Counted from the first letter of the stretch, positions 7,801 to 48,348 are shown. The stretch: 48,637 bases of DNA from Desulfobacteria bacterium (GCA_035528755.1 DATKXZ010000023.1:1-48637), one strand, 5' to 3'. Notes: a model not told the origin generated them from the letters alone. Program-made: numbers and translations.

Positions 7801-8940
7801 TGTGCCATCAGTATCCTTTGGTAGCGGCGTCCTCAGCGTGATATATTTGAAGGCATCTCCAACTGTATCGCCACTTGTATCTATTACCTCAATCGCGGGC
7901 ACGTCGTATCGAACGCCATTCACGTAGAACGTATCTCCTGCTGTAATGCGTTTACCCACGACGATCTGAGCAAAGCCACCTCCGAACGCGTCGAATCGCG
8001 CATACCAGGTTCTCTCAGGATGGCTATAGGTGTTATACCTCACGTTATGTCTGTCAAACCAGGTATTCCCGTCTGGATCATCAGCCGCGCCATTATCGTA
8101 TCTTCCCAAAAGGCACCCCACAAACGTGTCATCTTCCACATTGCCCGCATACGACATTCTTACCTTGGCAAACGTATTGCCCGTGACCGGATGCGTAACC
8201 GTATAGAGATACTGTAGTTTGTGGTCTAAGAATTGTACTTTATCGTCCGGAGCCATAGAATATCCCTTTTCAATCTGTATCGTTCCACTCGTGGTCTTAT
8301 TGAAGCTAACCGTCAAGTCTTCCGATGTTACATCCACAAGCTTGACAGTGTTATTCGTCGCTAAATAAGTTTCGATCCCTACATCATTTGCGAATGAGCC
8401 AAGCCCGGTTTGATTCAGCTTCTCTGCTATCGGGAAGACGAATTGCGAGTTGTTCCTTCCTGATACGGGCATTATATTAACTGCGTCTACCAGCATATAG
8501 GTCGTTTCAACTTCGATGGTTGGGTAGTGGTAATCGGTGGAGCTGTAGTAATGGTGTGGCTCGTACCAGAGTCTGAGGTACTTCTTGACGTCTATGTCAC
8601 GGTTGCCATCGCTAGTATTTGCAAACATGGCGTCATATTCACCGTCCTTTACAATTGCAGGGTTGAAGACCAGCACATCCTTTTGCAGTGCAGTTGGGTC
8701 AAAGGCGTCCGCATAGTTGGGGTAGACAAATTGCCCCTGAGAATCATAGACCGTAACCGCAGGGCCCTCGTCGAGTTCACCGTACACGCGCAGCGTTGCC
8801 TTATAAAGCGAGACGTTACCTATTCCCTCATTACCTTCTGGCGGTCCTGGTGGTTGTGAAGCGACTGGTAATACCGTAAATATCGAAGCAATCATTATAA
8901 GCGCTAGTGTTATTCCTATTATATTCTTTTTAGTATTCAT
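4867..8940 (-). CDS. Very large secreted cell-surface protein (S-layer-like candidate): two tandem ~500-aa homologous modules, one PKD domain and a Trp/Tyr-rich C-terminal domain.
   Basis: The track ORF is 4867..8955, starting at a GTG inside the SD sequence. The ATG at 8940 (MNTKKNIIGITLALIMIASIFTVLPVASQ) lies 11 nt after GGAGGTGA and is the likelier start. The internal duplication is visible in LRVYGELDEGP/LRIYGEDDRGP, KKYLRLWYEP/KKFLRIWYEP, TIEVETTYMLVD/TIEVESTYMLVD, RTWYARFDA/RTWYARYEA and YITLRTPLPK/YITIRTPLPK. Confidence 0.85.
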   Translation of the reverse strand: MNTKKNIIGITLALIMIASIFTVLPVASQPPGPPEGNEGIGNVSLYKATLRVYGELDEGPAVTVYDSQGQFVYPNYADAFDPTALQKDVLVFNPAIVKDGEYDAMFANTSDGNRDIDVKKYLRLWYEPHHYYSSTDYHYPTIEVETTYMLVDAVNIMPVSGRNNSQFVFPIAEKLNQTGLGSFANDVGIETYLATNNTVKLVDVTSEDLTVSFNKTTSGTIQIEKGYSMAPDDKVQFLDHKLQYLYTVTHPVTGNTFAKVRMSYAGNVEDDTFVGCLLGRYDNGAADDPDGNTWFDRHNVRYNTYSHPERTWYARFDAFGGGFAQIVVGKRITAGDTFYVNGVRYDVPAIEVIDTSGDTVGDAFKYITLRTPLPKDTDGTRSFIDDKIVSSQWLDAIAPEETIPLNPPFNADHYIVDDINVVLWEPDTYPLTGLEERYLTMPNPPSGLGWTPMDPDNDGNWILNDTEERISPSKVEPLVFAYIEEAVEPRFDTELYEILLENFSTPPPVDSWTHFDIETEPDHYTAFALPTLWDVPTPPVNKSGDYLLVSSFYAPNSMGLSEMNRSSEMPRVAFAYDVEPEDDVLGTDTLMGDEMDIYVNSYGDYYSRLRIYGEDDRGPVNAYTLGNGSWIYSNYQYPFNPAALRKDSITFNPAIVERSADYPIVSDGLNAAVKKFLRIWYEPAHNFSDDKTPTGPEATIEVESTYMLVDNVDFDPLPGGVLKGTFFVFPIASNFTTAPAGLDLFENPTSDPMRENVVTLSYVNGSVLTNNKTLNGTIRIEKTYTLDEGEEIQFMDFKLKYNWYTEDPVLHYKNASVVLTYVGNNESGSGGSWTPAGATIEPTEKFFDMHYVEASTPDHPYRTWYARYEADIPGYNKSMITVGKELQAGDIFYVEGIRYDVSAIEVKDTNGDTFSDKFTYITIRTPLPKGTGDFEEDLPTSQWVDRWPNKTILPLNPPFCGTHAIVDDIDAGDEDDYTVRERILEGIPALEIFYIAEVIEPRYSTNLLQILNETLYLGSDEPDEDWTQYDVRTLPDQFTEFVLPGDNARWDFNESEWKSGSSTLHNDYLVTTSFLAPNAEYSLADITYPDEFRVAFVYDVFNMEGIYINEIDETPPTITGLDPTVNINVTPDTPTNVTGCQDVTVCTDGTTDDQMSQGLEIWVTWGDGETAPTQIMSDAGSPVCFTHSYLLNGPYTITVTARDIYGNTGTKTHTVNVSSDCCRLVLSNGWNQFSANVNTTDNVSTIFDPMDYDWVDVVWTWDEALQSWDTLGPSDTLDPKRGYFIYCPLPDGDVVELVGTAAPFDDAWMTPGFNRWYLFGVGYSDQTVSYKSYWWNGFGYVGTYDLKQTRGYWRMVV

Positions 8941-8982
8941 TTTTTTTCTTTTCACCTCCTAAATGCTTTGATTGCAAGGAAG

Positions 8983-15199: not shown

Positions 15200-16483
15200 T
15201 TGACAAAACGTTCTTTTATAAAATCAGAAAGGCTGATGCCGAACGTAATACGAGACCCGCTGCATGGATATATAGAACTGGACGAACTTGCCAGCGCGAT
15301 CATAGATACCGCGGAGATGCAGCGGCTGAGGCGGATCAGACAGCTCGGCTTCTCTTATCTGGTCTATCCGGGCGCGAATCATACGCGGTTCGAGCATTCG
15401 CTCGGCACGTACCATCTGATGAATGTCTTGCTTAACCGGCTCGAAGTAGCGAAAGAGGAAGAGCAGGAGCTGCTCGTTGCGGCATTGATCCATGACGTGG
15501 GCCATGGCCCGTATTCGCACGTGACCGAGCCGCTCATAAAGCGGCTGACGGGAAAAGGCCATGAAGATCTCGAATCCGTGCTCTTTGCAGAGGAGAACGT
15601 GCGGGAAAAAGATGCCGAAACCGCAGCAGCACCGACCATAGCAGAAGTCGTGGAAGCGCATCATTTGGATATACGGAAGATCCTAGGTTACATAAAAGGC
15701 GAGAAAACAGAAGGTGTGCGAAAGCGGGATCTTTCACGGATATTAAACGGCGAAATCGACGTGGACAAGATGGACTATTTGGTTAGAGATTCGTATTATA
15801 CCGGCGTGGCTTACGGTGTCGTTGACAATATACGGCTCATCCAAGGGCTGAATTTCTTCGATGACGAGCTCGTTCTCACGGAGAAAGGAGTGCTGCCGGC
15901 AGAATATCTGCTCTTCTCCCGGTTCCTGATGCACCCTACCGTTTATAATCACCATACCGGTCGGATAGCGCAATTGATGCTTTTGAATGCACTTGACGCG
16001 TTCATCGAATCCTCAGCAGAATCGAAAGACTATGCAGCCGCATTACGAACAATGGACGATTCCGAGATAAACATCGCATTAAGGAATGCCGGGGGCTATC
16101 CAAACGAGATGATAACGCGGCTAAACGAGCGGCGATTGTTCAAACGGGCGATATACACAAACGTAAGCGAGCTGGATGCGAGTGCAGCAGAAGGTTTACG
16201 TGACGCACGACGGATGCAAGAAGTAGTAGCGGACATAAGCAAGCGCGCGGGCGTTGATAAGAAATATGTCTTACTGGATTATCAAAAGCCAAAAGGCAGG
16301 GAGTTAGAAGAAGGTGCGGCAAGGGTGGTTATCGGGAACGAGTTCAGGAGTCTGCGCGATGTGTCATCGCTCGTTGCCATGCTCAGTCGCGAATTCGAGC
16401 GGAATTATAAAATCGGGGTTTATACGCCGGAAGAACATAGAGCAAAAGTGAAAAAGGCTGCCGAAGAGATCTTGTGGAAGTGA
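15200..16483 (+). CDS. HD-domain metal-dependent phosphohydrolase (dNTP triphosphohydrolase/SAMHD1-like).
   Basis: Contains IRDPLHGYIEL, RLRRIRQLG, RFEHSLGT, HDVGHGPYSH and DVDKMDYLVRDSYYTG. The track start is TTG at 15200; the ATG at 15236 is more likely. Confidence 0.85.
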   Translation: MTKRSFIKSERLMPNVIRDPLHGYIELDELASAIIDTAEMQRLRRIRQLGFSYLVYPGANHTRFEHSLGTYHLMNVLLNRLEVAKEEEQELLVAALIHDVGHGPYSHVTEPLIKRLTGKGHEDLESVLFAEENVREKDAETAAAPTIAEVVEAHHLDIRKILGYIKGEKTEGVRKRDLSRILNGEIDVDKMDYLVRDSYYTGVAYGVVDNIRLIQGLNFFDDELVLTEKGVLPAEYLLFSRFLMHPTVYNHHTGRIAQLMLLNALDAFIESSAESKDYAAALRTMDDSEINIALRNAGGYPNEMITRLNERRLFKRAIYTNVSELDASAAEGLRDARRMQEVVADISKRAGVDKKYVLLDYQKPKGRELEEGAARVVIGNEFRSLRDVSSLVAMLSREFERNYKIGVYTPEEHRAKVKKAAEEILWK

Positions 16484-16540
16484 AAAAGTTATGTCCAGAT
16501 ATAAAAATCACAAAGTGTTGCAATACATGAGGATGTAGAA

Positions 16541-17428
16541 ATGTATAAAAGTTTCAAAATAATAGATGATTTTGTTAAAGAGATATACGGTTTTAATTTA
16601 ATTGGAGAACCAATTAATCATGATATTTCAAAAATAAAGGAGTTAAGAAAAGCTCATGAGACTATAAAAGAGATAACACAAAGGAAAAGAAAACCCTATT
16701 CAAATGAATTTATCAAATACGTGTATCCTCTATTAGAAATTTCATTGCAGTGGTCTGAGTTAAAGAAAGAAGGGAGTATAACTGAATATTTTTTAGAAAA
16801 ATGCAAGCAAAGAGTTAGAACTCCAAACAACTTTTATGGCACCATATTCGAGATAGATATGGCCTCTAGGTGTATTTTATCAAATTGGGATATTAAATTT
16901 TCAGAAGATTGCACTAAAGAAGGGAGGCAAATAGATTTTGTATTTTATAAACGTGATAATCATTGTAAAGTGATTGGTGTAGAATGTCATTCAAAAAGAA
17001 ATACACGTAATCTCACAATCCAAAAGATTAACAGAGCTATTAATGATAAGGCAAAGAAGTTTGAACAGGAATTTATAAATAAATTAGGCTTTAATCTAGA
17101 TGAGAAGTTGTTAATTATTGATATAACGACAGCTAACTATTCTTCGCCTAAGATTTTGGAAGATTTAGATAAAACCGAAATGAGTGGTAAATTAGACGCA
17201 GTAATTTTCACTTGGAGAGAAGATAAAATAGATGGCGAAAATCATAGTTTAGCAGTAAAGTATAAAGTCATTGGTGATTGTGATAAGAAATATTTTTCAA
17301 CAACATATGCCGCAGAACTTCGTAAAGGTCCCGTTTTCTTTGTGAGAAAATATATCGAGCCTGAACCTTGTGTTATCAAAGTAGAACCTGAAGAAAGAAC
17401 TCATAGGATTGGAAAGCAGAAGAGATAA
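16541..17428 (+). CDS. AT-rich orphan protein with a weak restriction-endonuclease-like (PD-(D/E)xK-like) motif pattern.
   Basis: 295-aa ORF, visibly AT-richer than its neighbours. FEIDM...QIDFVFY...VIGVECHSK is only suggestive of a nuclease core. Confidence 0.5.
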   Translation: MYKSFKIIDDFVKEIYGFNLIGEPINHDISKIKELRKAHETIKEITQRKRKPYSNEFIKYVYPLLEISLQWSELKKEGSITEYFLEKCKQRVRTPNNFYGTIFEIDMASRCILSNWDIKFSEDCTKEGRQIDFVFYKRDNHCKVIGVECHSKRNTRNLTIQKINRAINDKAKKFEQEFINKLGFNLDEKLLIIDITTANYSSPKILEDLDKTEMSGKLDAVIFTWREDKIDGENHSLAVKYKVIGDCDKKYFSTTYAAELRKGPVFFVRKYIEPEPCVIKVEPEERTHRIGKQKR

Positions 17429-17451
17429 AAAAAGTGATGTGATTTGCTCAA

Positions 17452-17576
17452 TCACGCCTCTTCCGCTTCCGCCTTCGCCAGAAGCTCCGCAAGCGACTTC
17501 TTGCCGTATTCCTTGACGGTTACATTGATCTGCGAGATTTCCGTGGAGATTTCGTTACCCCGCACGGATTTCCGGC
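17452..17576 (-). repeat. Detached duplicate of the 3' end of rps6e (last 41 codons plus stop): copy A of a 125-bp direct repeat.
   Basis: Matches 18416..18540 at 122 of 125 positions (3 substitutions). Would encode RKSVRGNEISTEISQINVTVKEYGKKSLAELLAKAEAEEA*. Confidence 0.95.
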
Positions 17577-17659
17577 TGCCCCAGAGGGCGGAAAAGTGGT
17601 CTACCATATTGTAGCCACAAAGGTAGTTATTTATATGCCTCCATACTATAACTCCATAT

Positions 17660-17899
17660 ATGGCAGGTACACAAAGTAAATACATTACGCTCTCCATCAA
17701 AGTTCGCAGAGAAATGAAGGAGAAACTCGAGCACGCGGGGATTAAGCCGAGCGAGGTGATGCGTACGGCGTTAAGTGATGCGCTCGAAGAGGCGGATAAG
17801 GAAGCATTATTAAACGAATGGAAGATTGTGCGCGGGATCTTCAAGAAAATTCCAGAAGAGCGTATAACGAGGGGCATCCGGGAAGATAGGGAGCGATAA
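17660..17899 (+). CDS. vapB: VapB-type antitoxin (small DNA-binding protein).
   Basis: 79 aa. Reads ITLSIKVRREMKEKLEHAGIKPSEVMRTAL. The stop is 1 nt before the PIN-gene start. Confidence 0.7.
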   Translation: MAGTQSKYITLSIKVRREMKEKLEHAGIKPSEVMRTALSDALEEADKEALLNEWKIVRGIFKKIPEERITRGIREDRER

Positions 17900-17900
17900 C

Positions 17901-18293
17901 ATGCTGTTTGATGCAAGTTCAATTTATCTTCTTGCTAAAGAAGGGCGTATCGAGATTCTTATAGGAAAGAGCACACTCTCACTCGCAATCTACGAACTCG
18001 GGAATGCGATCTTGAAGGATATTCGAATATTCAAGAGTATCTCACCTGAAGAAGGCATGAAAGCACTGAGTTTTTTAAGAAAAATCCTGGAGAAAATGGA
18101 GGTTCATGCGATAGGCAGGAACGAGGTTCAGATACTGAAGTTCGCGGGAGAGCAGGGTCTCACTTTTTACGATGCAGCCTATTTACAAATGGCGTTGGAG
18201 CTTGAAGCGCCACTCGTGACAGAGGATGAAAAGCTCAAACGCGTTACATCCGCCCTCGCCCTAACCGAGGTTTACTCTGCTCATGAGTTGTGA
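17901..18293 (+). CDS. vapC: PIN-domain ribonuclease toxin VapC.
   Basis: 130 aa. Reads MLFDASSIY (Asp4)...LTFYDAAYLQMALELEAPLVTEDEKL (conserved acidic residues). Confidence 0.8.
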   Translation: MLFDASSIYLLAKEGRIEILIGKSTLSLAIYELGNAILKDIRIFKSISPEEGMKALSFLRKILEKMEVHAIGRNEVQILKFAGEQGLTFYDAAYLQMALELEAPLVTEDEKLKRVTSALALTEVYSAHEL

Positions 18294-18415
18294 AACCACA
18301 CATTTTCGACATGGAGCCAGCGCTGCCGAGAAATAGGGATGTGAAGGGGTCAAAAATCGATGATGGTTTTAGGGTTCGCAATTCCCACGAGACCGTTCAA
18401 AGCTCACTCAACCTA

Positions 18416-18808
18416 TCACGCCTCTTCTGCTTCCGCCTTCACCAGAAGCTCCGCAAGCGACTTCTTGCCGTATTCCTTGACGGTTACATTGATCTGCGAG
18501 ATTTCCGTGGAGATTTCGTTACCACGCACGGATTTCCGGCGCCGTTTACCTTGCTCTTTTAGCTGGTACCCTGGGGGATCAGTGATTAATATCCGCTTCC
18601 GCGCCATACCCCCAACGTCTTTACGCATCGGCATACCCTGCTTGTCCGAGCCGCCGGTTATCTCGAGCGCATAGCCGCCCAGACCAAGAATATCCGCATC
18701 CACAACGTTGCCGACCCGTTTCCCGATGAACAGCGCATTCGCTTCTGCATCCTTGCCTTCCACTTTGTACGCCTTACCTGTTTTTGAATCGCTTATCACA
18801 ATCTGCAT
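18416..18808 (-). CDS. rps6e: 30S ribosomal protein S6e.
   Basis: Reads MQIVISDSKTGKAYKVE...GGYALEITGGSDKQGMPMRKDV...RKSVRGNEIS. The 3' 125 nt (18416-18540) form copy B of the direct repeat. Confidence 0.9.
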   Translation of the reverse strand: MQIVISDSKTGKAYKVEGKDAEANALFIGKRVGNVVDADILGLGGYALEITGGSDKQGMPMRKDVGGMARKRILITDPPGYQLKEQGKRRRKSVRGNEISTEISQINVTVKEYGKKSLAELLVKAEAEEA

Positions 18809-18841
18809 TTTGTTTTTGTGCTCCCTTCTCCTTCTATCTTA

Positions 18842-18850
18842 ATTTATAAA
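18842..18850 (-). promoter_or_regulatory. TATA box for rps6e.
   Basis: The minus strand reads GGTTTATAAATT, 34-42 nt upstream of the ATG at 18808. Confidence 0.45.
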
Positions 18851-19141
18851 CCTTCTTCTAATAAGTCTCTTTTTTCGTGCTCTTTATATTTTTTCATGGT
18901 TCACCGAGGACTCGCGGTTAAGAGCACTTTGAAGATTGATAGAGAAATATTCCCCTCATCAAACCTTTATTTGCATTAATGAACTCGTATAGAGAGTCTT
19001 CCGCAATCTCCCTTCTCAAGCACTCTATCCACCCCTCCATCTTGCCGCCTTTCACCGCTCTAATAAAGAATATATGAAAATGAGTTGTTACGTAATCTGG
19101 TTTTTTAAAACTTGGCGATGTAAGATGTATAGGGTTATAAA

Positions 19142-19642
19142 ATGTCAGAAGTAGAGACTTTGGAGGATTTATATAATTGGATAGAGGACGAATACGTCTC
19201 TGATTTTTTAGGTGCTGTTATGAATATACTGCATGACAGACCTAACGTGTGGGTTACAATAAGAGATATAGCTGCGATTTTAAACAAACAATTTGTTGAG
19301 ACCTACGCCAAGCAGATGACTTTGCTACTGTTTCCAATACGCTTCTTACCTGAAATAGAAAGTAAAGAAGACGAGGATGATGCATTATGGAGATTTAAAT
19401 ATAACCCTGATACAGAGAAGGAATTTAAGAAGACAGGTTTTGAGAGGTTATCAGATCGACAGATCTCCAAATGGGATATAATTGAGAAAGCTTACGCTAA
19501 AACTATAGATGATAACATAGGGTATTTCAAAGGCGAAAAACAGGAAAAGAACCTAAAAAGTGGGGATGACCAGTTAGAGGCTGCAAGGAGCCAACTAAGA
19601 AAAGCACAACTGGATGAACGGGAGGTAGGGAGGGATCTTTAA
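19142..19642 (+). CDS. AT-rich orphan protein (acidic, with a coiled-coil C-terminus).
   Basis: 166-aa ORF with no motif I recognise. Confidence 0.45.
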   Translation: MSEVETLEDLYNWIEDEYVSDFLGAVMNILHDRPNVWVTIRDIAAILNKQFVETYAKQMTLLLFPIRFLPEIESKEDEDDALWRFKYNPDTEKEFKKTGFERLSDRQISKWDIIEKAYAKTIDDNIGYFKGEKQEKNLKSGDDQLEAARSQLRKAQLDEREVGRDL

Positions 19643-19668
19643 AAAGTCTTGAGTTTAAAGCAGCTTGT

Positions 19669-20379
19669 CTACAAATCCTCATGGAGAGCAGCCGCAACAG
19701 ATGGAATGATAACTGAAGTTAGTGACTCGATATAACTCCTAGGATCGAATATTTTTTGAGAGGAACACCTAAAGGCTATTCTACTCTCGCGAAGAATATC
19801 GATAAACTCACCCTCGCTCCCTCTTAATCTCTCACCCACTACCGATATTTGATTATAGAGTATTTTTGCACTCCCGGCGCTCGTAAATTCCTCACCAATT
19901 ATTCTACTGTTGGCAAGTTGCAGGAATTTCTTAATGACTATCCGATAATCTGTGGGGATTTTATCCACTTTGACGAATACCTCAAAAGCCTCCTTAAACC
20001 TCTTAAAATATCTCTCCTCTAACTCCTCCAAGATATTCTCTTTTGTCCTATATACACTGTCCCATAGCTCTCGATCTTTAGATTGTTTGGTGCGGACACC
20101 GCAGCCCCACGGTTCTTCTGGGATGTATAACGAGGGATGTCTCGATTTTAATTCTTCATGATACTTGTTCTGAATTTTAACCATTGTATTTTTCACCTTA
20201 TCTAATCCCTCTGGAGATGATGTGCTAAAATAAACGGTGAGAATCTCAAGGGGAGTCGTAAAGGAGTCGCTAAAAAGACCGATGGAATAGCAAGGATGAA
20301 ATCTAAGATATAAAATCGCCAGATAAACAGCCATTGCTTCTTCATCACTCCCCATGAGATCGTCCAGCGAGATATTCAT
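19669..20379 (-). CDS. AT-rich orphan protein.
   Basis: 236-aa ORF, convergent with 19142..19642, with no motif I recognise. Confidence 0.45.
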   Translation of the reverse strand: MNISLDDLMGSDEEAMAVYLAILYLRFHPCYSIGLFSDSFTTPLEILTVYFSTSSPEGLDKVKNTMVKIQNKYHEELKSRHPSLYIPEEPWGCGVRTKQSKDRELWDSVYRTKENILEELEERYFKRFKEAFEVFVKVDKIPTDYRIVIKKFLQLANSRIIGEEFTSAGSAKILYNQISVVGERLRGSEGEFIDILRESRIAFRCSSQKIFDPRSYIESLTSVIIPSVAAALHEDL

Positions 20380-20655
20380 TTCTCATTCTCACCTCCTTCG
20401 TGTTACAATCTCCTTACTTACGTCCTCTTTCTTCTAAATGCAATTTTTTGGTAGTTATAGCCCATAGGTAGACGGAAATTTTCATACCCGTTTCTTCTCA
20501 TTTCTTCTATTATTTCATCGTCGCTCATATTTGGCCATGTCTTTCTTAAATCTTCCAGCAACGGTGCTTTAGGTTTATAGCCATAGTTTCGCGTCACTTT
20601 CTTCGCCCCTTCATGCAGTTTGATACTAATTTAAAATTGAATCTAAGCAAAAACG

Positions 20656-20916
20656 CTATCGCAGCAGCTTCTTTTTCTGCTCATTAAATTCCTCATCTGT
20701 GATAACTCCTTGATCATGTAACTCTGCTAATTTTTTAAGTTCGTCCGCTATTTCCGTCTGCTTCGGTTCTTCCTTTGGCTTCTCCTTCGCTGCTCTAATT
20801 ATAAACCTAATAGCAAGCAGGATCGCTGTTATTACAACAATAATCGCGATAGCAATTGGTACTAGTAGAGTTACTAGAATTCCTGTTTCTGTTGGTCCAA
20901 TCAAATCCACAATCAC
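20656..20916 (-). CDS. Small membrane protein with a C-terminal SHOCT domain.
   Basis: N-terminal TM segment (ILVTLLVPIAIAIIVVITAILLAI) plus ELKKLAELHDQGVITDEEFNEQKKKLL. Confidence 0.7.
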   Translation of the reverse strand: MIVDLIGPTETGILVTLLVPIAIAIIVVITAILLAIRFIIRAAKEKPKEEPKQTEIADELKKLAELHDQGVITDEEFNEQKKKLLR

Positions 20917-21000
20917 CCCCTGTGTTTTACACCATACCTTTCTATCTCACGGACCCATATAAAACTTTCGATGTATATATCCAAAACGTCGACATGCCAC

Positions 21001-28163: not shown

Positions 28164-29495
28164 TTAGCTGCGTGGTAGTTCGGTCAACAATACAACATCC
28201 ACCGGTTCCCCTTCTTCTATTATCTCCTTACCTTTTTCCATGAATAGGTAGCCATCGGCTTTTGACAGCGTTGTGATCGCGCCCGAGCCGGTGAGGATAG
28301 GATAAGCGAGGAATGCCGCGTCTTCCGCCTTTTCCGCCGGAGTGAGAGTGACAAGCACGTATTCGTTTCGGCCTTTATCAGAGAAGATTCGCATCGCAGC
28401 CTTTGCTTTTATTCCTTTTCCCGCTCTTCTCTTTGCGTCCTCATAATCCCGGGAGAGCCCTGATAGCACGCGAAGCAGCGGCGCGACGAACAGGTTGAAG
28501 GTGACTAATGCGGACGTCGGATTCCCGGGCAAGCCGAAGAAAGGCGTTTCGTGAATTGATCCGAAGATGAAGGGCTTTCCTGGTTTGATGTCAACGCCGT
28601 GTACGAGTATCTCGCCGCGCTCTTCTACTACCTTTGGCAGCAGGTCACCAACGCCGGCAGAGGTCCCTCCTGATGCAATAATAACGTCAACGCCCTTCTC
28701 TAACGGCTCCCTTAACTTCCCTGATAGCTCCTCGATAGTGTCACGTGCAATCCCGAGGAAATACGGTGTGCAGCCGCATTCACGGACCGAATCGCTGAGT
28801 GCCCGGGTATTAACGTCATATATCTTCGCGGGTTCGAGCGTTTCACCAGGCGCTGTGAGCTCGTTGCCCGTGGACATGAGCGCGACCATCGGCTTTCTAC
28901 GGACCATAACTTCGTTGAGACCGCACGCAGCCAGGACTCCGGTATCACGCGGTGTGAGCGTCGTGCCGCTCCGTATTAGTTGCTCTCCTCGCTTTATATC
29001 AGAGCCCGCACGCATGATATTCTCGCCAGGAGCGACGGGTTTGTAGATCTTTACCCTCGTTCGCTCTTCTCCTTCTATAACCTCGGTATACTCGGCGGTG
29101 TTCTCTACTTTTACCGTTGCGTCCGCGCCTTTGGGCAGCGGTGCACCGGTTGATATGCCACTACAATAGCCTGGCTCTACGGACTGTGACGGCAACTCGC
29201 CCGCAAAGATTAACCCGGTTACAATCAAGGAAGCGGGATTATCCTCATCGGCATAGAAGGTGTCTGAAGCTACAACTGCGTAGCCGTCCATGAGTGCTCG
29301 ATCAAACGGAGGAACATTAAGCGCTGAGAAGACGTCGGCAGCCGCAACTCTACCGAGCGCCTCGGCTACGTTCACCTTCTCCACCGATGCCTCTTCTGTT
29401 TGTGCGCGTGCCGTTACTACTTCTGCGGCAACGCGCGCGATTATCGCGTCTACTTCCCGCTTCTCGGTTATCTCTAAGAACTGCTCCCCCATCAA
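28164..29495 (-). CDS. moeA: Molybdopterin molybdenumtransferase MoeA.
   Basis: Reads PPFDRALMDGYAV...G...ISTGAP.P.GADA...MSTGNEL...IYD.N...IASGGTSAG..D. Confidence 0.88.
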   Translation of the reverse strand: MMGEQFLEITEKREVDAIIARVAAEVVTARAQTEEASVEKVNVAEALGRVAAADVFSALNVPPFDRALMDGYAVVASDTFYADEDNPASLIVTGLIFAGELPSQSVEPGYCSGISTGAPLPKGADATVKVENTAEYTEVIEGEERTRVKIYKPVAPGENIMRAGSDIKRGEQLIRSGTTLTPRDTGVLAACGLNEVMVRRKPMVALMSTGNELTAPGETLEPAKIYDVNTRALSDSVRECGCTPYFLGIARDTIEELSGKLREPLEKGVDVIIASGGTSAGVGDLLPKVVEERGEILVHGVDIKPGKPFIFGSIHETPFFGLPGNPTSALVTFNLFVAPLLRVLSGLSRDYEDAKRRAGKGIKAKAAMRIFSDKGRNEYVLVTLTPAEKAEDAAFLAYPILTGSGAITTLSKADGYLFMEKGKEIIEEGEPVDVVLLTELPRS

Positions 29496-29541: not shown

Positions 29542-30333
29542 TTATTCCGATCTCTCCTTGGTCTCTTCTTTATCCTTGGAACGTGCCTCAGAGCGGTATC
29601 CCAGCGCCTCGAGCATCTCTATTGGGAACGGAATGATAACTGTGGTGGCCTTCTCCTCCGTCGCCTCCTTTATCGTTTGGAGCGTTCGAATGAACATCCC
29701 GCCTTTTTCTTTTTGCAGGACGTTCGCAGCTTCTGCAATCTTCTTCGCCGCCTGGAACTCGGCATCTGCGGAGATAATTCGTGCTCTTTTATTCCGCTCT
29801 GCTTCTGCCTGTGCTGCCATTGCACGCTGCATCTCTTTTGGCAGTTCTACATCCTTTATCTCCACTGAAGAGACCTTTATGCCCCACGGATCTGTCGCTT
29901 CGTCTATTATGACCTGCAATCGTTTATTGATCTTGTCTCGCTCGGAGAGTATTTCGTCCAGCTCCGCCTGTCCTATCACACCTCTTATTGTGGTCAGAGC
30001 GACTTGCGAGGTGGCATACTGGTATTGCTCTACCTCGGTTACCGCCTTCTCGGGGTCAAGCACGCGGTAATAAACGACCGCGTTCACTTTCGCGGTGACA
30101 TTATCTTTGGTTATGACCTCTTGCGGCGGGATATCGAAAACAGACACACGCAAGTCTATCTTTACCATGGACTCGAAGAGGGGTATAATCAAGAACAACC
30201 CCGGGCCTCTCGCACCGACCAAACGCCCGAGCCTGAAGATGACACCTCGTTCGTATTCCTTCACTACCTTTATCGACGACGCTAATACAATCACTGCAAA
30301 AAATAAAACTCCAATTAGCCATTCAAAAGCCAT
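29542..30333 (-). CDS. SPFH-domain protein (stomatin/prohibitin family).
   Basis: N-terminal TM segment, then VKEYERGVIFRLGRL...QEVITKDNV...AVVYYRV, and a coiled-coil AAQAEAERNKRARII. Confidence 0.88.
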   Translation of the reverse strand: MAFEWLIGVLFFAVIVLASSIKVVKEYERGVIFRLGRLVGARGPGLFLIIPLFESMVKIDLRVSVFDIPPQEVITKDNVTAKVNAVVYYRVLDPEKAVTEVEQYQYATSQVALTTIRGVIGQAELDEILSERDKINKRLQVIIDEATDPWGIKVSSVEIKDVELPKEMQRAMAAQAEAERNKRARIISADAEFQAAKKIAEAANVLQKEKGGMFIRTLQTIKEATEEKATTVIIPFPIEMLEALGYRSEARSKDKEETKERSE

Positions 30334-30668
30334 TTTTTATTTCATCGCCTCCTCTACTCTACAATATACTATGGTTCTAATTTATAATATAGGGCTATAG
30401 CTTTGTATCCCTTAGTGGGGTTTTTGGTCAAAAATGTCGTGATCTCCTCTATCAGCCGATAAAATCTGCCAAATAACATAAAAAAGGACAGCGAGATGAA
30501 TTTTGCCATAACGCCGATCGGTAACTAAACATGGCTGCATGAAACCCGGCTAACGTTCTTGCAAGATACTTCACTTCACATACCATCCCCACGATTATGG
30601 TCGGAACCGCTCATTCAAGGCCCCGCTTGATTTACAATATCTGCTTAAGCATTCCGGCGCAGGGTAGC

Positions 30669-32714
30669 TCACGTTGAAGCACGAGGGAAGTTATTGAGTT
30701 CTTCCTGTAATTCCTCAGGTAAGCCTTCACCACTGTAATCCTTGCCTTGGATCTTTGAAGCGAGTGCGTTCAAAAAAGCGCCAAAATAAAATTCCCGGTT
30801 AACTTCTTTGAGCGCCCCGATAAATTCAATTGTAGTATCCGCTTCCATCCTCTTCATTCTCTCAATTAAAAGGAAGATCGTTCTTGTATAAATCTTTGGA
30901 TTGAAAATTGCGGTTTTTAGCGCACGTAAATAGTATCCGTACTGAGCGTTATCGTGTTTCCTGACAATATCGCCAAGGAGCATATATGAACGGATTTCAA
31001 GTTCCTTAAAATTCCTCTGAATAGCATCAAAAGCACAGACTTTTGCCCTCTCCTCCGCCTCCAACAGCTCGTTGTTTTCCGCAAGCGTTTTCGCCAATTC
31101 TAAGTAGGTTCTGGCAAGCTCGTATCGTGCGCCAAGAGTTTGAAAAATGTCAATAGAGTGCGTAAAATAGCTCTTAGCTTTGTTTATGTTGCCGTATTTG
31201 AAATATACACTGCCCAGGTTTCGCAATGACAGTCCTTGATCCAATGGGCTCTGAAGGTCCTGTGCAAGTTTCAATGCGGATTCACAGTAATTTTTAGCCT
31301 GCTCAAGGCTTTTTAGGGAGTTGTTGGATTCAAAATCCATTAGATACGCTCTGCCGAATTTATTGAAAATCGTAACCTTTTTTGGACGCAATTCCAACTC
31401 AGATGCGATTTTAAGTGCTTTTTGGAATTCGGAAAAAGCCTCCTCGTACTGCTCCTCTACACTATCCAACTCGCCAAGATTCACAAGAGCATCAATTGCT
31501 CCCACGGGGGTGGTTCTCTCATACAGTTCGAGTGCTTTTTCGAGGTGCTTCCGTGCATCCTCCCATTCGCCTGATTTTATCTGTAACTCTCCAATATTTG
31601 AAAGGGTCTCGCCCTGTCTTGTCAGACTTTCTATCGTTTCAAATATCTCCAAGGCGTCGTTGAAGAGTTGCAGCGATTTATCCAAATCCCCAAGTACCAT
31701 ATTGGCTTCACCAAGACCTAAAAGCCATACCCCTTCACCCTGCCGGTCTCCGATTTCCCGGTCGATCGCAAGTGCCTGTTCATAGTATTCGATTGCCTTC
31801 TTTAACTCCCCCAGATTGGAATACGCATCCCCTAGGTTGCCGAGAGTGCTGCCTTCAAGCTGCTTGGATCCGATTTCCCGGTCGATCGCAAGTGCCTGCT
31901 CATAGTACTCGATTGCCTTCCTTAGCTCCCCCAGAGCGGAATATGTAGTCCCTAGGTTGCCAATCCAGATCCCTTCATTTATCTTATCTCCAATATCTCT
32001 CGCAATATCGATGGCATGTTCATAGAATTCGATAGCCTTCCTTAGCTCCCCCAGTGAAGAATATGCATTCCCTAGGTCGCCGAGAGCAGCACCTTCACCT
32101 CTCCTGTCTTCGATTGCTCGCGCGATCCCAAGTGCCTTTTCATAGTATTCGTTTGCCTTCCTTAGCTCCCCCAGTGAAGAATATGCATGCCCGAGGTTGC
32201 CGAGAGTATTACCTTCAAGCTGCTTGGATCCGATTTCACGGGCTATCGCAAGTGCCTTTTCATGGTATTCAATTGCCTTCCTTAGCTCCCCCAGTGAAGA
32301 ATATGCATGCCCGAGGTTGCCGAGATCAGCACCTTCACCGTCCCTGTCTCCGATCTCTCGCGAGATCGCAAGTGCCTTTTCGTGGTATTCAATCGCCTTC
32401 CTTAGCTCTCCCAGTGAAGAATATGTAAGCCCTAAGTTGCCGAGAGTATTACCTTCAAGTTGCTTGGATCCGATTGCCCGGGCGATTGCCAATGCCTCTT
32501 CATGGTATTCAATCGCCTTCCTTAGCTCTCCCAGATCGGAATATGCAAGCCCGAGGTTGGCGAGAGCAGCAGCTTCACCTTCCCTGTTTCCGATTTCCCG
32601 GGCGATCGCGAGTGCCTCTTCATAAAATCCGATTGCCTTTTTAAACTCGCTTCTTTTGTAAGCATTAATACCCTTTTCAAGTAAGTCCGATACCGACGAT
32701 GTATCAAACGCCAT
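30669..32714 (-). CDS. 681-aa all-TPR protein: about eight near-identical 40-aa units followed by a degenerate helical repeat region. No recognisable enzymatic domain.
   Basis: The unit LGNLG.AYSSLGELRKAIEY.EKALAIAREIG(SKQLEGNT/DR.GEGA) is repeated. The start overlaps the upstream stop (TAATG). Confidence 0.85.
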   Translation of the reverse strand: MAFDTSSVSDLLEKGINAYKRSEFKKAIGFYEEALAIAREIGNREGEAAALANLGLAYSDLGELRKAIEYHEEALAIARAIGSKQLEGNTLGNLGLTYSSLGELRKAIEYHEKALAISREIGDRDGEGADLGNLGHAYSSLGELRKAIEYHEKALAIAREIGSKQLEGNTLGNLGHAYSSLGELRKANEYYEKALGIARAIEDRRGEGAALGDLGNAYSSLGELRKAIEFYEHAIDIARDIGDKINEGIWIGNLGTTYSALGELRKAIEYYEQALAIDREIGSKQLEGSTLGNLGDAYSNLGELKKAIEYYEQALAIDREIGDRQGEGVWLLGLGEANMVLGDLDKSLQLFNDALEIFETIESLTRQGETLSNIGELQIKSGEWEDARKHLEKALELYERTTPVGAIDALVNLGELDSVEEQYEEAFSEFQKALKIASELELRPKKVTIFNKFGRAYLMDFESNNSLKSLEQAKNYCESALKLAQDLQSPLDQGLSLRNLGSVYFKYGNINKAKSYFTHSIDIFQTLGARYELARTYLELAKTLAENNELLEAEERAKVCAFDAIQRNFKELEIRSYMLLGDIVRKHDNAQYGYYLRALKTAIFNPKIYTRTIFLLIERMKRMEADTTIEFIGALKEVNREFYFGAFLNALASKIQGKDYSGEGLPEELQEELNNFPRAST
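31741..32640. repeat. In-frame tandem repeat array, period exactly 120 nt, about 7.5 units.
   Basis: cttagctcccccagtgaagaatatgca... recurs at 32041, 32161, 32281 and 32401, with variants at 31921 and 32521. Two alternating subtypes are visible. Confidence 0.95.
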
Positions 32715-33193
32715 TAAATCTCCTCCGTTTCCGCAGCTATTTTGCCAGCCGTGTACTCTTTAAGATCGAATTTGGTCTCGATACCCAGGTCTTTCATTAA
32801 GTTTTTTATTTCCCTCTTTATCTCGATTTCATTCTTGCATATCAATAGCAAGTCGCTCAATGCTTGGAAACAACTGGTTTGATCACCTTTTACAAATCCA
32901 ATTATTCGTGCCTTTCCGATAGATACTTTCCCCATGATAAATCCGAGCTTCCAGAAATCCATGTCCTCTGCTTCTTCTGAAGAACTGATAATGAGTGCAG
33001 TTTTCTCTGAAAAACCGTCCAGAAGACTCTTCAAATCCTTTACACCCATTTGTCGAAGGTCCGAAAGATTCACCACATGAACGTCCGCAGCAGGAGCATC
33101 GCTTTGAATAGTCAGTTTAAGGTCCACATTGTCGACTTTAATATCCTCCCCCGACCATGACAAAATACAGAAGTCTTTTTTCTCTCCGTTCAT
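32714..33193 (-). CDS. 159-aa cytoplasmic protein of unknown function. A faint Rossmannoid/TIR-like strand-helix pattern is visible.
   Basis: The ORF is coupled on both sides, by ATGA at 33190-33193 and TAATG at 32712-32716. FCILSW...TALIISSSEE...FWKLGFIMGK...ARIIGFVKG alternates hydrophobic strands with helices. The domain assignment is speculative. Confidence 0.55.
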   Translation of the reverse strand: MNGEKKDFCILSWSGEDIKVDNVDLKLTIQSDAPAADVHVVNLSDLRQMGVKDLKSLLDGFSEKTALIISSSEEAEDMDFWKLGFIMGKVSIGKARIIGFVKGDQTSCFQALSDLLLICKNEIEIKREIKNLMKDLGIETKFDLKEYTAGKIAAETEEI

Positions 33194-33738
33194 ATTCTTT
33201 CTCCTTTCAAGGAGTTGTCCTTGCCTTCGCAGAACTCCTTCAGATTTTTCAGGTCCTTGTATAAGCCTTCAAATTCTCCAATTTTATCAAGTAATAAAGC
33301 ATCATCTCCGCTGTACGTTCTTTCCTTTGCATTTTTGAGCCATATTACCGCTTGTGACCAGTTACTAGTAACTGCTTTGTGATTTAAGTCAATAATCCGT
33401 TTTACCCTGAAAAATATACTCAAATAATCCTCTCCCGATTTTTTGTGTTTCCCTTTTAAATGCACTGCCGTGCCGTAGGACTGCATTATGTCGTTCAAAG
33501 GCTGGATCGCGGAATTAAAAAGCTCCTTGCCTCTCGGTTCATCTCCACCATATATGTCGATTTCGTCAAACAGCAGCAATAAATTGTAGCAGGCCAGCCA
33601 GAGGGGGTAGTATAACGTTGCTCTGAGTTCTTTTTTTCTGTTATACCACGCAACGAAAGTCCCTGCGCCTCCGACTAGGAGACCGACAATAAAATCTATT
33701 TTTTCATAGAGTAGTTGTGGAATTGGTGGTATGGCCAT
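33190..33738 (-). CDS. Single-pass membrane protein of unknown function, first gene of the TPR cassette.
   Basis: Begins at the ATG at 33738 (MAIPPIPQLLYEKIDFIVGLLVGGAGTFVAWY... TM segment); the track start is GTG at 33804. The C-terminal domain is helical. Confidence 0.5.
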   Translation of the reverse strand: MAIPPIPQLLYEKIDFIVGLLVGGAGTFVAWYNRKKELRATLYYPLWLACYNLLLLFDEIDIYGGDEPRGKELFNSAIQPLNDIMQSYGTAVHLKGKHKKSGEDYLSIFFRVKRIIDLNHKAVTSNWSQAVIWLKNAKERTYSGDDALLLDKIGEFEGLYKDLKNLKEFCEGKDNSLKGERI

Positions 33739-33835
33739 ATTATTAGCTAGGTATTCGTACGTATAAAAGGTTATCTCTTTACATGTTCTACACCGTTCGT
33801 GCACTTTAAGAAAATGGTTAAAATTTGAAGCACAA

Positions 33836-34397: not shown

Positions 34398-34471
34398 TGG
34401 GGTCGGTGCGATTCGAACGCACGATCGGCGAGTCTGGAGCCCGCTGCCCTTCCGGACTAGGCCACGACCCC
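34398..34471 (-). tRNA. tRNA-Trp (anticodon CCA), intron-less.
   Basis: Manual fold:
- acceptor GGGGTCG/CGACCCC
- D arm GCCT-AGTCCGGAA-GGGC
- anticodon stem GCGGG/CTCGC, loop CT-CCA-GA
- T arm GTGCG-TTCGAAT-CGCAC
- discriminator A, with a T6 run downstream
The length is 74 nt. Confidence 0.88.
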
Positions 34472-45338: not shown

Positions 45339-45923
45339 ATGAAAGCGGAGGGAAACAAGATGGATGCGTACTTGGAAGCACGGTCTTATGAGCGTGAGGC
45401 GCGAGAGGAAGAGAAGAAGAGCAGTTATGAGGGTGCAATCGCACTGTGGAGAAGATATGCTGAGATAAAGGAGAGTAAGGGCAGCTACTTCTTGTGTATG
45501 TACGGCTATTTCAATGCCGCTCGGATTTGCGATACGATCCAGCGCTGGAAGGACGCAGCAGAGCTTTTTGAGCGTGCATCCGCGTTCGCAGAGCGACTCG
45601 GTGAGCGCTCGCTATGGGCGTTCTTTATGAACATGGCATGTCAGATGCATGAGAAGGAGGGGGACTATGAGGCTTGCAAGGACCGTTACGAGACCATTGG
45701 TAATTTCTTCTTTGCGCAGGATAACTTCTTCGGCGCTGCAGATGCGTACGAACATGCCGCGGAGGTTATGTCGCTCGCCGGTGAAGACATCTCGGATTAT
45801 GACGTGCCCGTAGATGCGTGGCGAAAGAACTATGAATATTGGAAAGAGCAAGGCGAGATGGACGACGCCGAGTGGAGTTTAAAGCGAATAGACACGTATC
45901 GCACCATCCAAAACAAAGTTTAA
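45339..45923 (+). CDS. Hypothetical all-helical (TPR/SNAP-like) protein.
   Basis: 194-aa ORF with repeating A..Y..AA helical-hairpin patterns. An AT-rich TATA-containing leader lies upstream. Confidence 0.5.
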   Translation: MKAEGNKMDAYLEARSYEREAREEEKKSSYEGAIALWRRYAEIKESKGSYFLCMYGYFNAARICDTIQRWKDAAELFERASAFAERLGERSLWAFFMNMACQMHEKEGDYEACKDRYETIGNFFFAQDNFFGAADAYEHAAEVMSLAGEDISDYDVPVDAWRKNYEYWKEQGEMDDAEWSLKRIDTYRTIQNKV

Positions 45924-46992: not shown

Positions 46993-48348
46993 TCATCGAG
47001 AGGCCCAATCATGGAGGTTTTTCTGGTTGTTCATATTTTGTTTACAATAAGGGCAGAATTTCCACGATGCCGCAATCGAGGAATTACAGTTCGGGCATTT
47101 TTTGACCCCTATATCTGATCCACAGTGAGGGCATACATTCCAGTTCTGATCGAGATTGCTACCGCAGGAAGGGCATTTGTAAACGCTGCCATTATTATTC
47201 GTTATGCCGACTCGTGCTAAATACTCTTTGATTCGCTCATCTATCTCCTCTTTCTGTGGTGGCTTCTCGAGTACCTGTTTAATGCTCAAGGCAGGATATG
47301 CCTTCACATACGCCGCTTTTAGCCGGTTTACCGTTGCTCTCATGTACGCACTATCATACGGAAGCTTATGTCCCAGCATCTCTTCTACGTAATCCGGAGG
47401 GGCACCTTGATCCCTGAGGATAGTGGAGAACGAGGCACGTAAGGCATGTATTCCCGCAGTGTTTATTGTTCTCCCTTTTTCTTCCTCACTTATCAGCCCT
47501 GCCTTCAGTGCTACTGCTTGCATAGCTCTATTAATGCCACTTTCATAAGCCCTCACACGCTCTTTCCTGCGGCGGTTGGATTCTGATATGAAGAGAGGAG
47601 AATCTTTCTTTATGTCTTCGGGATCCAGATATCGCGACCCCTTTTTCCTGAGCTTGATATAACAGCTTAATGAATCTACCGCGTCTTCCCCTATGAAGGT
47701 ATAATATTCTATCCCCTCTTTCTCTCTCATGAGATGTAACGTAAGTGGAACTTCACCCTTTTCTAAGCCCTCAGCCACATCTCCATAGTTCAGCGAGATA
47801 AGTTCTTTCATCCCCAGCCCGCCCTGGAATGCGCACAGGATGATCGTTCTGTCCCGTAATCTCTCACAGACCGCTATCATCCGCTTCACATCTTGTGCCG
47901 ATAGGAACTTTCTGAAGTTTTCTTTTAGTTTCCGTGGTGTTGGCAAGTGCAAATTGCCAACGGGAATCTCGTTCTCTTTATAAAATACCCGTACGTCCTC
48001 AATGATCCGCCCCGCGGATCGTGGCGCCAGTCCCCGTTCTCCTTTTCTCCTCCCTCCTTTTTCGGGTATTACATAGTCAGTCCGGAGCCAGTCATAGAAC
48101 TCTTTTAACTTCAGCTCTGTCTCCTTCACGCTTACTCGTTTCGCTTCTTCTATCAGTTCGCCAGGGCTTCGCTCTCTCCAATTGCAGTATAACTTTATCA
48201 GTCGTGCGCGGTTTTCCCTGATTTTCCTGCCTCTTCCGACGATGGTTACCCGTACCTCTTTGATGTCGCTAAAAGCATAATTGTTTCTTTCGAGTTCTGC
48301 TTCTACCCGGTCCACTTCAATCGCTTTCTCAGTCACGTTGCTCATCAC
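46993..48348 (-). CDS. Tyrosine recombinase/integrase with an N-terminal SAM-like domain and a C-terminal double zinc ribbon.
   Basis: Catalytic-domain motifs: [14 protein letters not shown] (Arg-region context), HALRASFST (HxxR), [14 protein letters not shown] (His...Tyr). The C-terminus reads CPSCGS..x..CPHCGS...CPNCNS..x..CPYCKQ. GTG at 48348 or ATG at 48345. Confidence 0.85.

Follow-up and report, generated by a model that had tools for sequence, protein, structure and literature searches.

Several described systems are built around tetratricopeptide repeat (TPR) scaffolds. The TPR domains of Hop bind acidic C-terminal peptides, and LapB (YciM) is a non-enzymatic adaptor that holds a TPR platform at the cytoplasmic face of the membrane by means of a single N-terminal transmembrane (TM) helix. 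The TPR-scaffolded conflict systems described in PMC7159879 are defined by a nucleoside triphosphatase (NTPase) core, and in the MoxR-vWA ternary systems the third component is encoded with a MoxR AAA+ ATPase and a vWA protein, TPR and Band7 domains being scaffolding parts of these systems (PMC7159879). Here, we analyze a cassette of three genes, denoted A, B and C, located at positions 30669-33804 of a 48,637-nucleotide stretch of DNA (hereafter, the window) deposited as Desulfobacteria bacterium (GCA_035528755.1, DATKXZ010000023.1:1-48637). A preliminary description of this DNA had singled out the cassette as a candidate uncharacterised system, possibly with a role in conflict or signalling. 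The cassette is a real, tightly coupled three-gene operon encoding a small membrane anchor, a small acidic protein and a long TPR scaffold; its likely mode of action and its relation to the systems above are considered below.

Organization of the cassette

Three open reading frames (ORFs) were called on the minus strand (33190-33804, 204 amino acids (aa) from a GTG codon; 32714-33193, 159 aa; 30669-32714, 681 aa), and all cassette features given below lie on this strand. Direct reading of the sequence confirmed that the ORFs are chained by their stop and start codons. At the A/B junction (33190-33193, within AGAATATGAACGG), the TGA stop codon of A (33192-33190) and the ATG of B (33193-33191) form an ATGA overlap, and at the B/C junction (32712-32716, within GAGATTTAATGGCG), the TAA of B (32716-32714) and the ATG of C (32714-32712) form a TAATG overlap. 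Shine-Dalgarno-like motifs are found before both internal starts, namely, AAGGAG (33206-33201) before B and GGAGGAG (32726-32720) before C. No such motif precedes gene A; in its place there is a TTTATA box (33762-33767), recognized by direct reading and a hexamer scan 24 nt 5' of the ATG of A. This box is a candidate archaeal promoter, from which a leaderless or very-short-leader mRNA would be expected, and most of the related loci carry similar A/T boxes 25-40 nt upstream of A.

The start codon of A could be assigned by comparison with its homologues, every one of which starts at equivalent MxIP... residues. The true product is, therefore, the 182-aa single-pass membrane protein starting at ATG 33738 (gene A, 33190-33738). 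Of the 182-204 aa range given originally, the single TM segment and the shorter length stand, and the GTG extension to 33804 is unsupported. Gene B (32714-33193) encodes a 159-aa acidic soluble protein and gene C (30669-32714) a 681-aa cytoplasmic TPR protein. The 335-bp gap between C and the adjacent stomatin gene is real (30334-30668); it lies outside the unit and probably carries the stomatin promoter. This spacer matches no Rfam family, its folding is no more stable than that of shuffled sequence (z = +0.83), and nothing downstream of C is conserved between the loci compared. On these grounds, a hidden RNA or a fourth gene in the gap or further downstream was rejected.

Conservation and distribution of the three-gene unit

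Co-occurrence of the three genes in other genomes had been set beforehand as a test of the proposed system. Junctions were tabulated by tblastn over 18 independent loci, the window included, 15 of which have informative downstream sequence (related loci are designated by L numbers). A directly adjoins B in all 18 loci; the 4-nt ATGA overlap is identical in 12, and the others show overlaps or gaps of a few nucleotides. The N-terminus of a C-type protein lies at or overlaps the stop codon of B in 14 of the 15 informative loci, at identities as low as ~42%, with a 1-nt B/C overlap of the TAATG kind in 11. The sole exception, L012 (897-1639), has a B truncated after ~70 aa and no C within 515 nt, and looks decayed or mis-assembled. 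The copy in L010 (835-1316), with a frameshift in B, has the same appearance, and in L001 gene A is split into pieces of 80 aa and 118/129 aa by a frameshift or an assembly error. The A-B-C triad is kept in the most divergent members of the set (L013-L018, 41-51% identity).

The three genes have also diverged together. Across loci, sequence identity changes in step for A, B and the C-terminal module of C, one clade having values of ~63-79% and the other of 41-51%. The ratios of non-synonymous to synonymous substitution (dN/dS) are 0.23-0.34 for A, 0.15-0.27 for B and 0.21-0.26 for the C module, with dN and dS being similar among the three. The overlaps have been preserved although synonymous sites have diverged (dS 0.47-0.82) or become saturated, which is more than expected by chance. 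Thus, the two small ORFs have both homologues and a coding signal, and A, B and C constitute a co-inherited, co-translated unit under purifying selection, in line with the original proposal of a three-gene system.

The families are small. B is represented by 19 clusters (47-100% identity) among 5.8 billion proteins, and HMMER, run exhaustively with a profile against 1.84 billion representatives, recovered 12 proteins, 11 of them at E<=1e-10, all of ~160-175 aa or fragments. For A, 56 clusters were found, all at least 43% identical and ~180-200 aa long, the only other architecture being one fusion (L021). The named sources of homologues are Candidatus Methanogaster, a member of the anaerobic methanotrophic archaea (ANME) of group 2c, and a metagenome-assembled genome labelled 'uncultured Halobacteria archaeon'; a genome scan found two genomes with one cassette locus each. 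Inheritance of the cassette as a unit is confined to methane-oxidising archaea of the ANME-2 type. The window itself is archaeal: its aIF5B passes the archaeal equivalog TIGR00491 (725 bits versus a cut-off of 554.75), and other archaeal-type genes are present as well. The B protein of the window is identical to NCBI entry HUV02146.1, deposited under 'Desulfobacteria bacterium'. This label is most likely a binning error, the contig stemming from a consortium of ANME and sulphate-reducing bacteria.

Proteins A and B represent orphan families

A and B are orphan families without a known relative in curated libraries or among solved structures. For A, no match was obtained in Pfam, NCBIfam, PADLOC (0 families at E<=1) or PHROG, and a profile search against the PDB was empty. 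For B, no recurrent Pfam family emerged from 16 members scanned at E<=10, NCBIfam, PHROG and PADLOC (0 families at E<=1) gave no match, and the PDB profile search was equally negative. As noted before, no enzymatic motif is recognisable: no enzymatic domain was found in A, B or C across the libraries searched. Our survey of the literature yielded no described counterpart of the A-B-C architecture, and that on ANME nothing relevant on the cassette.

The TM helix of A spans residues ~14-32 (IDFIVGLLVGGAGTFVAWY, 33643-33699), with a Kyte-Doolittle 19-residue maximum of 1.6 at residue 14. Within the helix, G19 is invariant and G23 nearly so, forming a GxxxG-like motif. The short N-terminus before the helix is acidic and a basic R-K-K-E-L-R stretch follows it, a charge pattern which, under the positive-inside rule, predicts an N-out/C-in orientation with the remaining ~145 aa in the cytoplasm. 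The AlphaFold2 model of A is all-helical (predicted local distance difference test (pLDDT) 81, predicted template modelling score 0.75), and a Foldseek search with it against the PDB returned only generic helical bundles, with a best E-value of 0.25. Two more specific assignments were considered and rejected. A match to the holin family Phage_holin_2_3 (E = 0.044) reached 14.2 bits versus a cut-off of 28.8 bits and covered the TM segment only. A HEPN-like R114-x5-H120 spacing is limited to the window and its nearest relative; in most of the other family members, glutamine takes the place of the histidine, and the motif was rejected because the histidine is not conserved.

B is acidic (isoelectric point 4.8), has no TM segment and contains two invariant motifs, ILxWSxEDI and DFWKLGFxMG. 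Its structural model is weak (pLDDT 56) and shows four beta-alpha units followed by three helices, so that an alternating beta/alpha core with C-terminal helices is probable. The preliminary description had ventured a TIR-like or Rossmann-type fold for B. Searches of libraries, of the PDB, with Foldseek and with hhalign were all negative in this respect, and what survives of the proposal is the alternating beta/alpha topology of the low-confidence model. Specifically, no Pfam TIR match was found in the 16 members, and no match in PADLOC, although this database includes TIR defence proteins; the best Foldseek E-value against the PDB was 0.12, with no TIR chain among the 50 matches listed. Alignment of the B family by hhalign with the verified TIR sequences of MyD88 (7l6w), RPV1 (5ku7), Roq1 (7jlu) and RUN1 (6o0w) gave probabilities of 0.1-0.3%, the level of the negative control; a positive control with a thin profile reached only 17%, and the limited sensitivity of the test means that a very remote relationship between B and TIR could have escaped it. 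The TIR fold is a flavodoxin-like five-stranded parallel sheet, and the low-confidence model of B, with its four beta-alpha units, is too weak to speak against it. Judged only by eye, F85, which lies four residues beyond the invariant W81, may stand in place of the catalytic glutamate that NADase-type TIR domains have in their alpha-C region, B having no reliable alignment to TIR. A receiver-like (CheY) fold, suggested by eye from acidic residues at the ends of beta-strands, was also discarded, there being no Pfam Response_reg match.

Protein C combines a variable TPR array with a fixed C-terminal module

Among Pfam families, C matches TPR_12 (2.6e-91), TPR_1 (1.5e-71) and TPR_2 (2.5e-57), as well as TPR_7, TPR_8, TPR_10 and TPR_MalT; no domain other than TPR, and no NTPase, was detected in Pfam. 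The scaffold residues L7, G8, Y11, A20, Y24 and A27 are conserved and fix the register, placing C in the TPR superfamily. Dissection into units showed that the variable N-terminal array (residues 42-361, 31632-32591) consists of eight in-register 40-aa units of the TPR_12 type, seen at the DNA level as a 120-bp tandem repeat (Tandem Repeats Finder, 7.6 copies, 76% matches, 31732-32639). In six C orthologues, a hidden Markov model of the unit detected 10, 7, 7, 6, 5 and 3 units, respectively. The remainder of the protein is of fixed size. Counted from the conserved anchor IKSGEWEDA, the C proteins of the window, L001, L003 and L013 all have the same length, exactly 303 aa, and the segment before the anchor measures 378, 138, 217 and 265 aa, respectively. 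This C-terminal module (residues 379-681, 30672-31580; 46-79% identity across loci) begins with degenerate TPR-like helices and continues with ~150 aa without a detectable family, for which neither Pfam nor the PDB provided a relative. C was previously said to be made only of TPR-type repeats; its 681 aa do contain TPRs, but the last ~150 aa have no Pfam-detectable repeat. Near its end is an acidic-aromatic tail (LPEELQEELNNF, 30687-30722), with the family motif LPxELxxELxxF derived from the alignment. The tail resembles the class of acidic peptides bound by Hop-type TPR grooves.

Variation within the array is not evenly spread. In the first seven units of the C protein of the window, six hypervariable columns account for 103 non-synonymous versus 2 synonymous codon differences, compared with 157 versus 151 in the remaining columns. 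Across the family, the most variable columns correspond to TPR positions -2, 2, 3, 9, 13, 12, 29 and 33, and the specificity-determining positions of the TPR concave face are 2, 5, 9, 12, 13, 33 and 34 (PMC1261162). The family-wide set thus includes the concave-face positions 2, 9, 12, 13 and 33, and the overlap of the within-protein set with the concave face has a hypergeometric P of 0.018. Assignment of C to the TPR-S sensor family was rejected. Although the whole protein scores 29.0 bits versus a cut-off of 27.6, no single stretch passes, and the 15.6 bits obtained for the conserved C module alone indicate generic TPR similarity.

In L018 (3901-4188), protein C carries, as an insertion immediately ahead of its tail, an accessory beta-rich domain of ~90 aa (FSWD...GKLNI) without a relative in Pfam or the PDB; in L021 (1092-1361), a homologous domain (38% identity, E = 9e-14) extends protein A as a C-terminal fusion. 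The presence of the same domain near the C-terminus of either A or C is indirect evidence that these ends adjoin in one assembly.

A putative membrane-tethered TPR adaptor

Taking these features together, we tentatively favour, at somewhat less than even likelihood, the reading that the cassette specifies a non-enzymatic, membrane-tethered TPR adaptor or sensor complex, made from one transcription unit with its products in fixed proportion. In its favour, overlaps and Shine-Dalgarno-like motifs precede B and C, and a candidate TATA box without such a motif precedes A. In the proposed complex, A would be the anchor, with its short N-terminus outside the cell, a GxxxG-type TM helix that probably self-associates, and the ~145-aa helical bundle facing the cytoplasm. 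C would be the scaffold, its fixed 303-aa module docking on A and/or B to form a constant core that probably includes B, a small acidic alpha/beta subunit with a bridging or regulating part to play. The array of 3-10 near-identical 40-aa units would form a concave groove, with specificity positions varying by unit and by lineage, that binds a protein or peptide ligand. The LPxELxxELxxF tail is a plausible self-ligand, which might occupy the groove until displaced by the partner. Such a complex would act by recruiting or sequestering its ligand at the membrane rather than by catalysis.

Several points weigh against this reading. A second hydrophobic helix in A (residues 40-58, Kyte-Doolittle 1.13) could change the predicted topology, and the role given to B is a guess because its model is poor. 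Any ligand-binding TPR protein is expected to vary on its concave face, and such variability does not indicate the identity of the ligand. The assignment of the tail as a TPR-binding self-ligand, while plausible, is drawn solely by analogy with Hop.

Composition, genomic context and alternative functions

The cassette was originally described as visibly AT-richer than its flanks. Its guanine-plus-cytosine (GC) content is indeed lower than that of the window (0.447 versus 0.487, the 10.7th percentile of same-size windows), but the shift is modest and the window contains stronger outliers. By gene, the values are 0.412 for A, 0.410 for B and 0.464 for C, compared with 0.532, 0.497 and 0.544 for the flanking moaB, stomatin and moeA genes. 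GC at third codon positions (GC3) is 0.45-0.47, versus 0.549 +/- 0.088 for 23 other genes, that is, only ~1.1 standard deviations low, and codon usage is typical; a mild reduction in GC and GC3 is, therefore, all that the comparison of composition bears out, and a foreign origin of the cassette on this basis was rejected. Similar offsets recur elsewhere: 0.40 for the cassette versus 0.48-0.51 for the flanks in L001, 0.39 versus 0.44 in L003, 0.33 versus 0.44 in L017 and 0.31 versus 0.40-0.46 in L018, the left flank of L013, a short contig, showing no real offset (0.297 versus 0.300). Because the AT shift recurs in four of five related loci, it belongs to the cassette as such and is not a sign of recent import into this genome.

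The genomic neighbourhoods are diverse across deep lineages and stable within them. In the window, the cassette is flanked by stomatin and moeA on one side and by moaB, tRNA-Trp, a PhoU/TrkA-C gene, aroA and argG on the other. L001 has DJ-1/PfpI upstream and CooT, GAPDH and TrkA downstream; L003 and L021 have MoxR and DUF58 upstream, with a vWA gene downstream in L003; L017 has L15e, an RNA-binding protein and a VitK2_biosynth gene upstream and a Big_1-like gene, followed by DUF2240 and RpoL, downstream; and L013 and L018 have still other neighbours. Within lineages, L007 shares the moaB side of the window, L006 and L008 the upstream side of L001, and L021 the DUF58 gene of L003. The differing neighbours argue against a conserved housekeeping neighbourhood, one of the outcomes that had been named as speaking against a distinct system. 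No defence or mobile gene was found within ~10 kb of the cassette in the window, the neighbours being housekeeping genes (aIF5B, DnaJ, MoeA, MoaB, AroA, ArgG). No notable direct or inverted repeats flank the cassette, and no att-like repeat joins it to the tRNA-Trp gene. The IMG/VR, phage and plasmid collections contain no copy of it, and the only integrase in the window is ~13 kb away; a mobile insertion was rejected accordingly.

These observations bear on the conflict or defence role suggested in the preliminary description. Were the cassette directed against viruses or used in conflict, the diversifying array of C would be the sensor of an invader protein and A, released or activated through B, a membrane-disrupting abortive-infection effector; small TM proteins commonly serve as defence effectors. 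Variation in the number of C units between lineages and hypervariability of the groove positions would suit such a system, as would the recurrent AT shift, the six different genomic contexts across deep lineages, the shuffling of the accessory domain between A and C and the narrow, patchy distribution. Yet neither A nor B belongs to any PADLOC-DB 2.0 family, C is hit there only by generic TPR models through its repeated stretches, and no NTPase, nuclease or effector domain is encoded in the cassette. Besides the lack of nearby defence, integrase or transposase genes, of flanking repeats and of viral or plasmid copies, the cassette is present at a single locus in each of the two genomes found by the scan, its dN/dS values are ordinary, and in L017 it starts 12 nt after a housekeeping gene. 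Its conserved position within lineages, among housekeeping neighbours, likewise speaks against such a role. None of the positive markers tested was present; the defence role did not hold up in the form proposed, and we consider it quite unlikely.

The same neighbourhoods could instead point to a factor, specific to these lineages, that assists the assembly or quality control of a housekeeping membrane complex in ANME/Methanosarcinales, its TPR array keeping hold of a client while this is inserted or matures. It would be the analogue of TPR assembly factors such as Ycf3, PilF/PilW and the membrane-anchored LapB. All neighbours are housekeeping genes; in L017, the cassette is part of a same-strand run with L15e, the RNA-binding protein and VitK2_biosynth, 12 nt from the last of these and near Fpo-like genes; and the cassette occurs in one copy, keeps its place within lineages and evolves under purifying selection. 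C is weakly and generically similar to the NCBIfam Ycf3, PilW and LapB models, with scores far below their cut-offs. However, variation in repeat number and groove hypervariability between close lineages would be unusual for one conserved client, the recurrent AT shift suggests an accessory gene set, and no candidate client gene is consistently adjacent. Such a factor appears unlikely.

In L003, MoxR-DUF58 and a BatA-like vWA gene enclose the cassette on the same strand, in L021 DUF58 is directly upstream, and in the window a Band7/stomatin gene follows 335 bp downstream on the same strand. One could, accordingly, regard the cassette as an add-on module that supplies a TPR platform to MoxR-DUF58-vWA (Bat-like) or stomatin/Band7 scaffolds. 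However, L003 and L021 represent one lineage (their DUF58 proteins are 89% identical), L001, L013, L017 and L018 have neither MoxR, DUF58 or vWA genes nor stomatin next to the cassette, and even in L003 the cassette has a promoter-like box of its own. We regard this possibility as very unlikely. Membership in a MoxR-vWA/Bat-like system was rejected in view of the restriction of these genes to L003/L021 and the absence of MoxR, DUF58 and vWA relatives from the window by tblastn, and membership in a stomatin-NfeD operon because A, B and C have no NfeD match and stomatin is adjacent only in the window.

Other features of the window and related loci

The stomatin/Band7 gene (29542-30333, minus strand) has no adjacent NfeD-type partner and sits between the cassette and moeA (28164-29495, minus strand), so that the molybdenum cofactor genes moeA and moaB are split apart by stomatin and the cassette. 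On the promoter side of the cassette, at a distance of ~660 bp, a tRNA-Trp (CCA) gene (34398-34471, minus strand) lies between moaB and the PhoU/TrkA-C gene. The tyrosine recombinase ~13 kb from the cassette (46993-48348, minus strand, 451 aa) combines a Phage_integrase domain with a C-terminal double zinc-ribbon extension and has a XerA-like score of 69 bits, far under the 220-bit cut-off. A second helical-repeat protein of the window (45339-45923, plus strand, 194 aa) resembles SNAP/TPR-like models weakly (E = 1e-4, below cut-off), and tblastn showed no relationship to the cassette. The 1362-aa ORF at 4867-8955 (minus strand) has no NCBIfam match and sub-threshold PKD similarity near residues 1141-1222; it may encode a large surface protein.

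The strongest composition outlier of the window is the region 16500-21000 (GC 0.30-0.40, about 0.30 at 16.5-17.5 kb), which may be a foreign island. It contains orphan ORFs at 16541-17428 (295 aa, GC 0.302, GC3 0.243), 19142-19642 and 19669-20379, without Pfam or NCBIfam match, and a gene with HD and HD_assoc_2 domains (15200-16483) is located just upstream. Upstream of the cassette in L001 (5182-10357, Candidatus Methanogaster PQXF01000008.1), a PIN-domain (VapC-like) pair is flanked by duplicates of a DJ-1/PfpI gene and of a tRNA-synt_1b fragment.

Implications and comparison with known systems

Marine methane flux is under the control of the ANME-2 archaea, uncultured organisms in which many lineage-specific genes have no assigned role. 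To their gene repertoire the cassette adds two protein families without relatives in curated libraries or solved structures, and its annotation is sharpened here by a corrected start codon, family boundaries and module architecture and by removal of the TIR and defence labels. If the adaptor complex binds a specific membrane partner, it could offer an entry into envelope or consortium biology or into a new, NTPase-free defence logic. More speculatively, the cassette might be an NTPase-independent recognition system of consortium-forming ANME-2, in which the orphan protein B would link a diversifying TPR sensor to the orphan membrane protein A, serving either a new kind of abortive-infection defence or partner/kin recognition at the envelope, an idea that we hold to be rather improbable.

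Of the described systems, kinesin-light-chain-type TPR_12 arrays and the TPR1/TPR2A domains of Hop resemble C in the TPR_12 match, the scaffold residues and the variability of the concave face. In contrast to them, the units of C are 40 aa long and vary in number by lineage, the 303-aa module has no detectable relative, and C is partnered with two orphan proteins rather than with a motor or a chaperone. The TPR sensors of the STAND/NLR type (AfsR, MalT; Kaur et al. 2020, PMC7159879) share with C a long TPR array with variable specificity positions, and C is weakly similar to the TPR_MalT, AfsR and TPR-S models, the AfsR/MalT matches being confined to TPR regions and far below cut-off. Unlike these sensors, the cassette has no NB-ARC, NACHT, AAA+ or MoxR NTPase (Pfam, NCBIfam) and no effector domain; with no NTPase family among the Pfam and NCBIfam matches of A, B and C, identification of the cassette as a STAND/NLR-like sensor was rejected. 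Bat-like MoxR-DUF58-vWA-TPR operons also combine, on one strand, a TPR protein with membrane-anchored partners, and the cassette is embedded in such operons in L003 and L021; however, A and B are unrelated to the BatA-E, DUF58 and vWA families, and the association is limited to one lineage. LapB (YciM) shares the overall logic of the cassette, and C has weak NCBIfam similarity to it (42.9 bits versus a 363-bit cut-off for the LapB model). In the cassette, however, anchor and TPR scaffold are separate polypeptides accompanied by a third subunit, there is no rubredoxin-type domain, and the system is archaeal. A TPR scaffold that has small partners at the membrane is a familiar kind of system; what seems new are the orphan families A and B and the A-B-C architecture itself.

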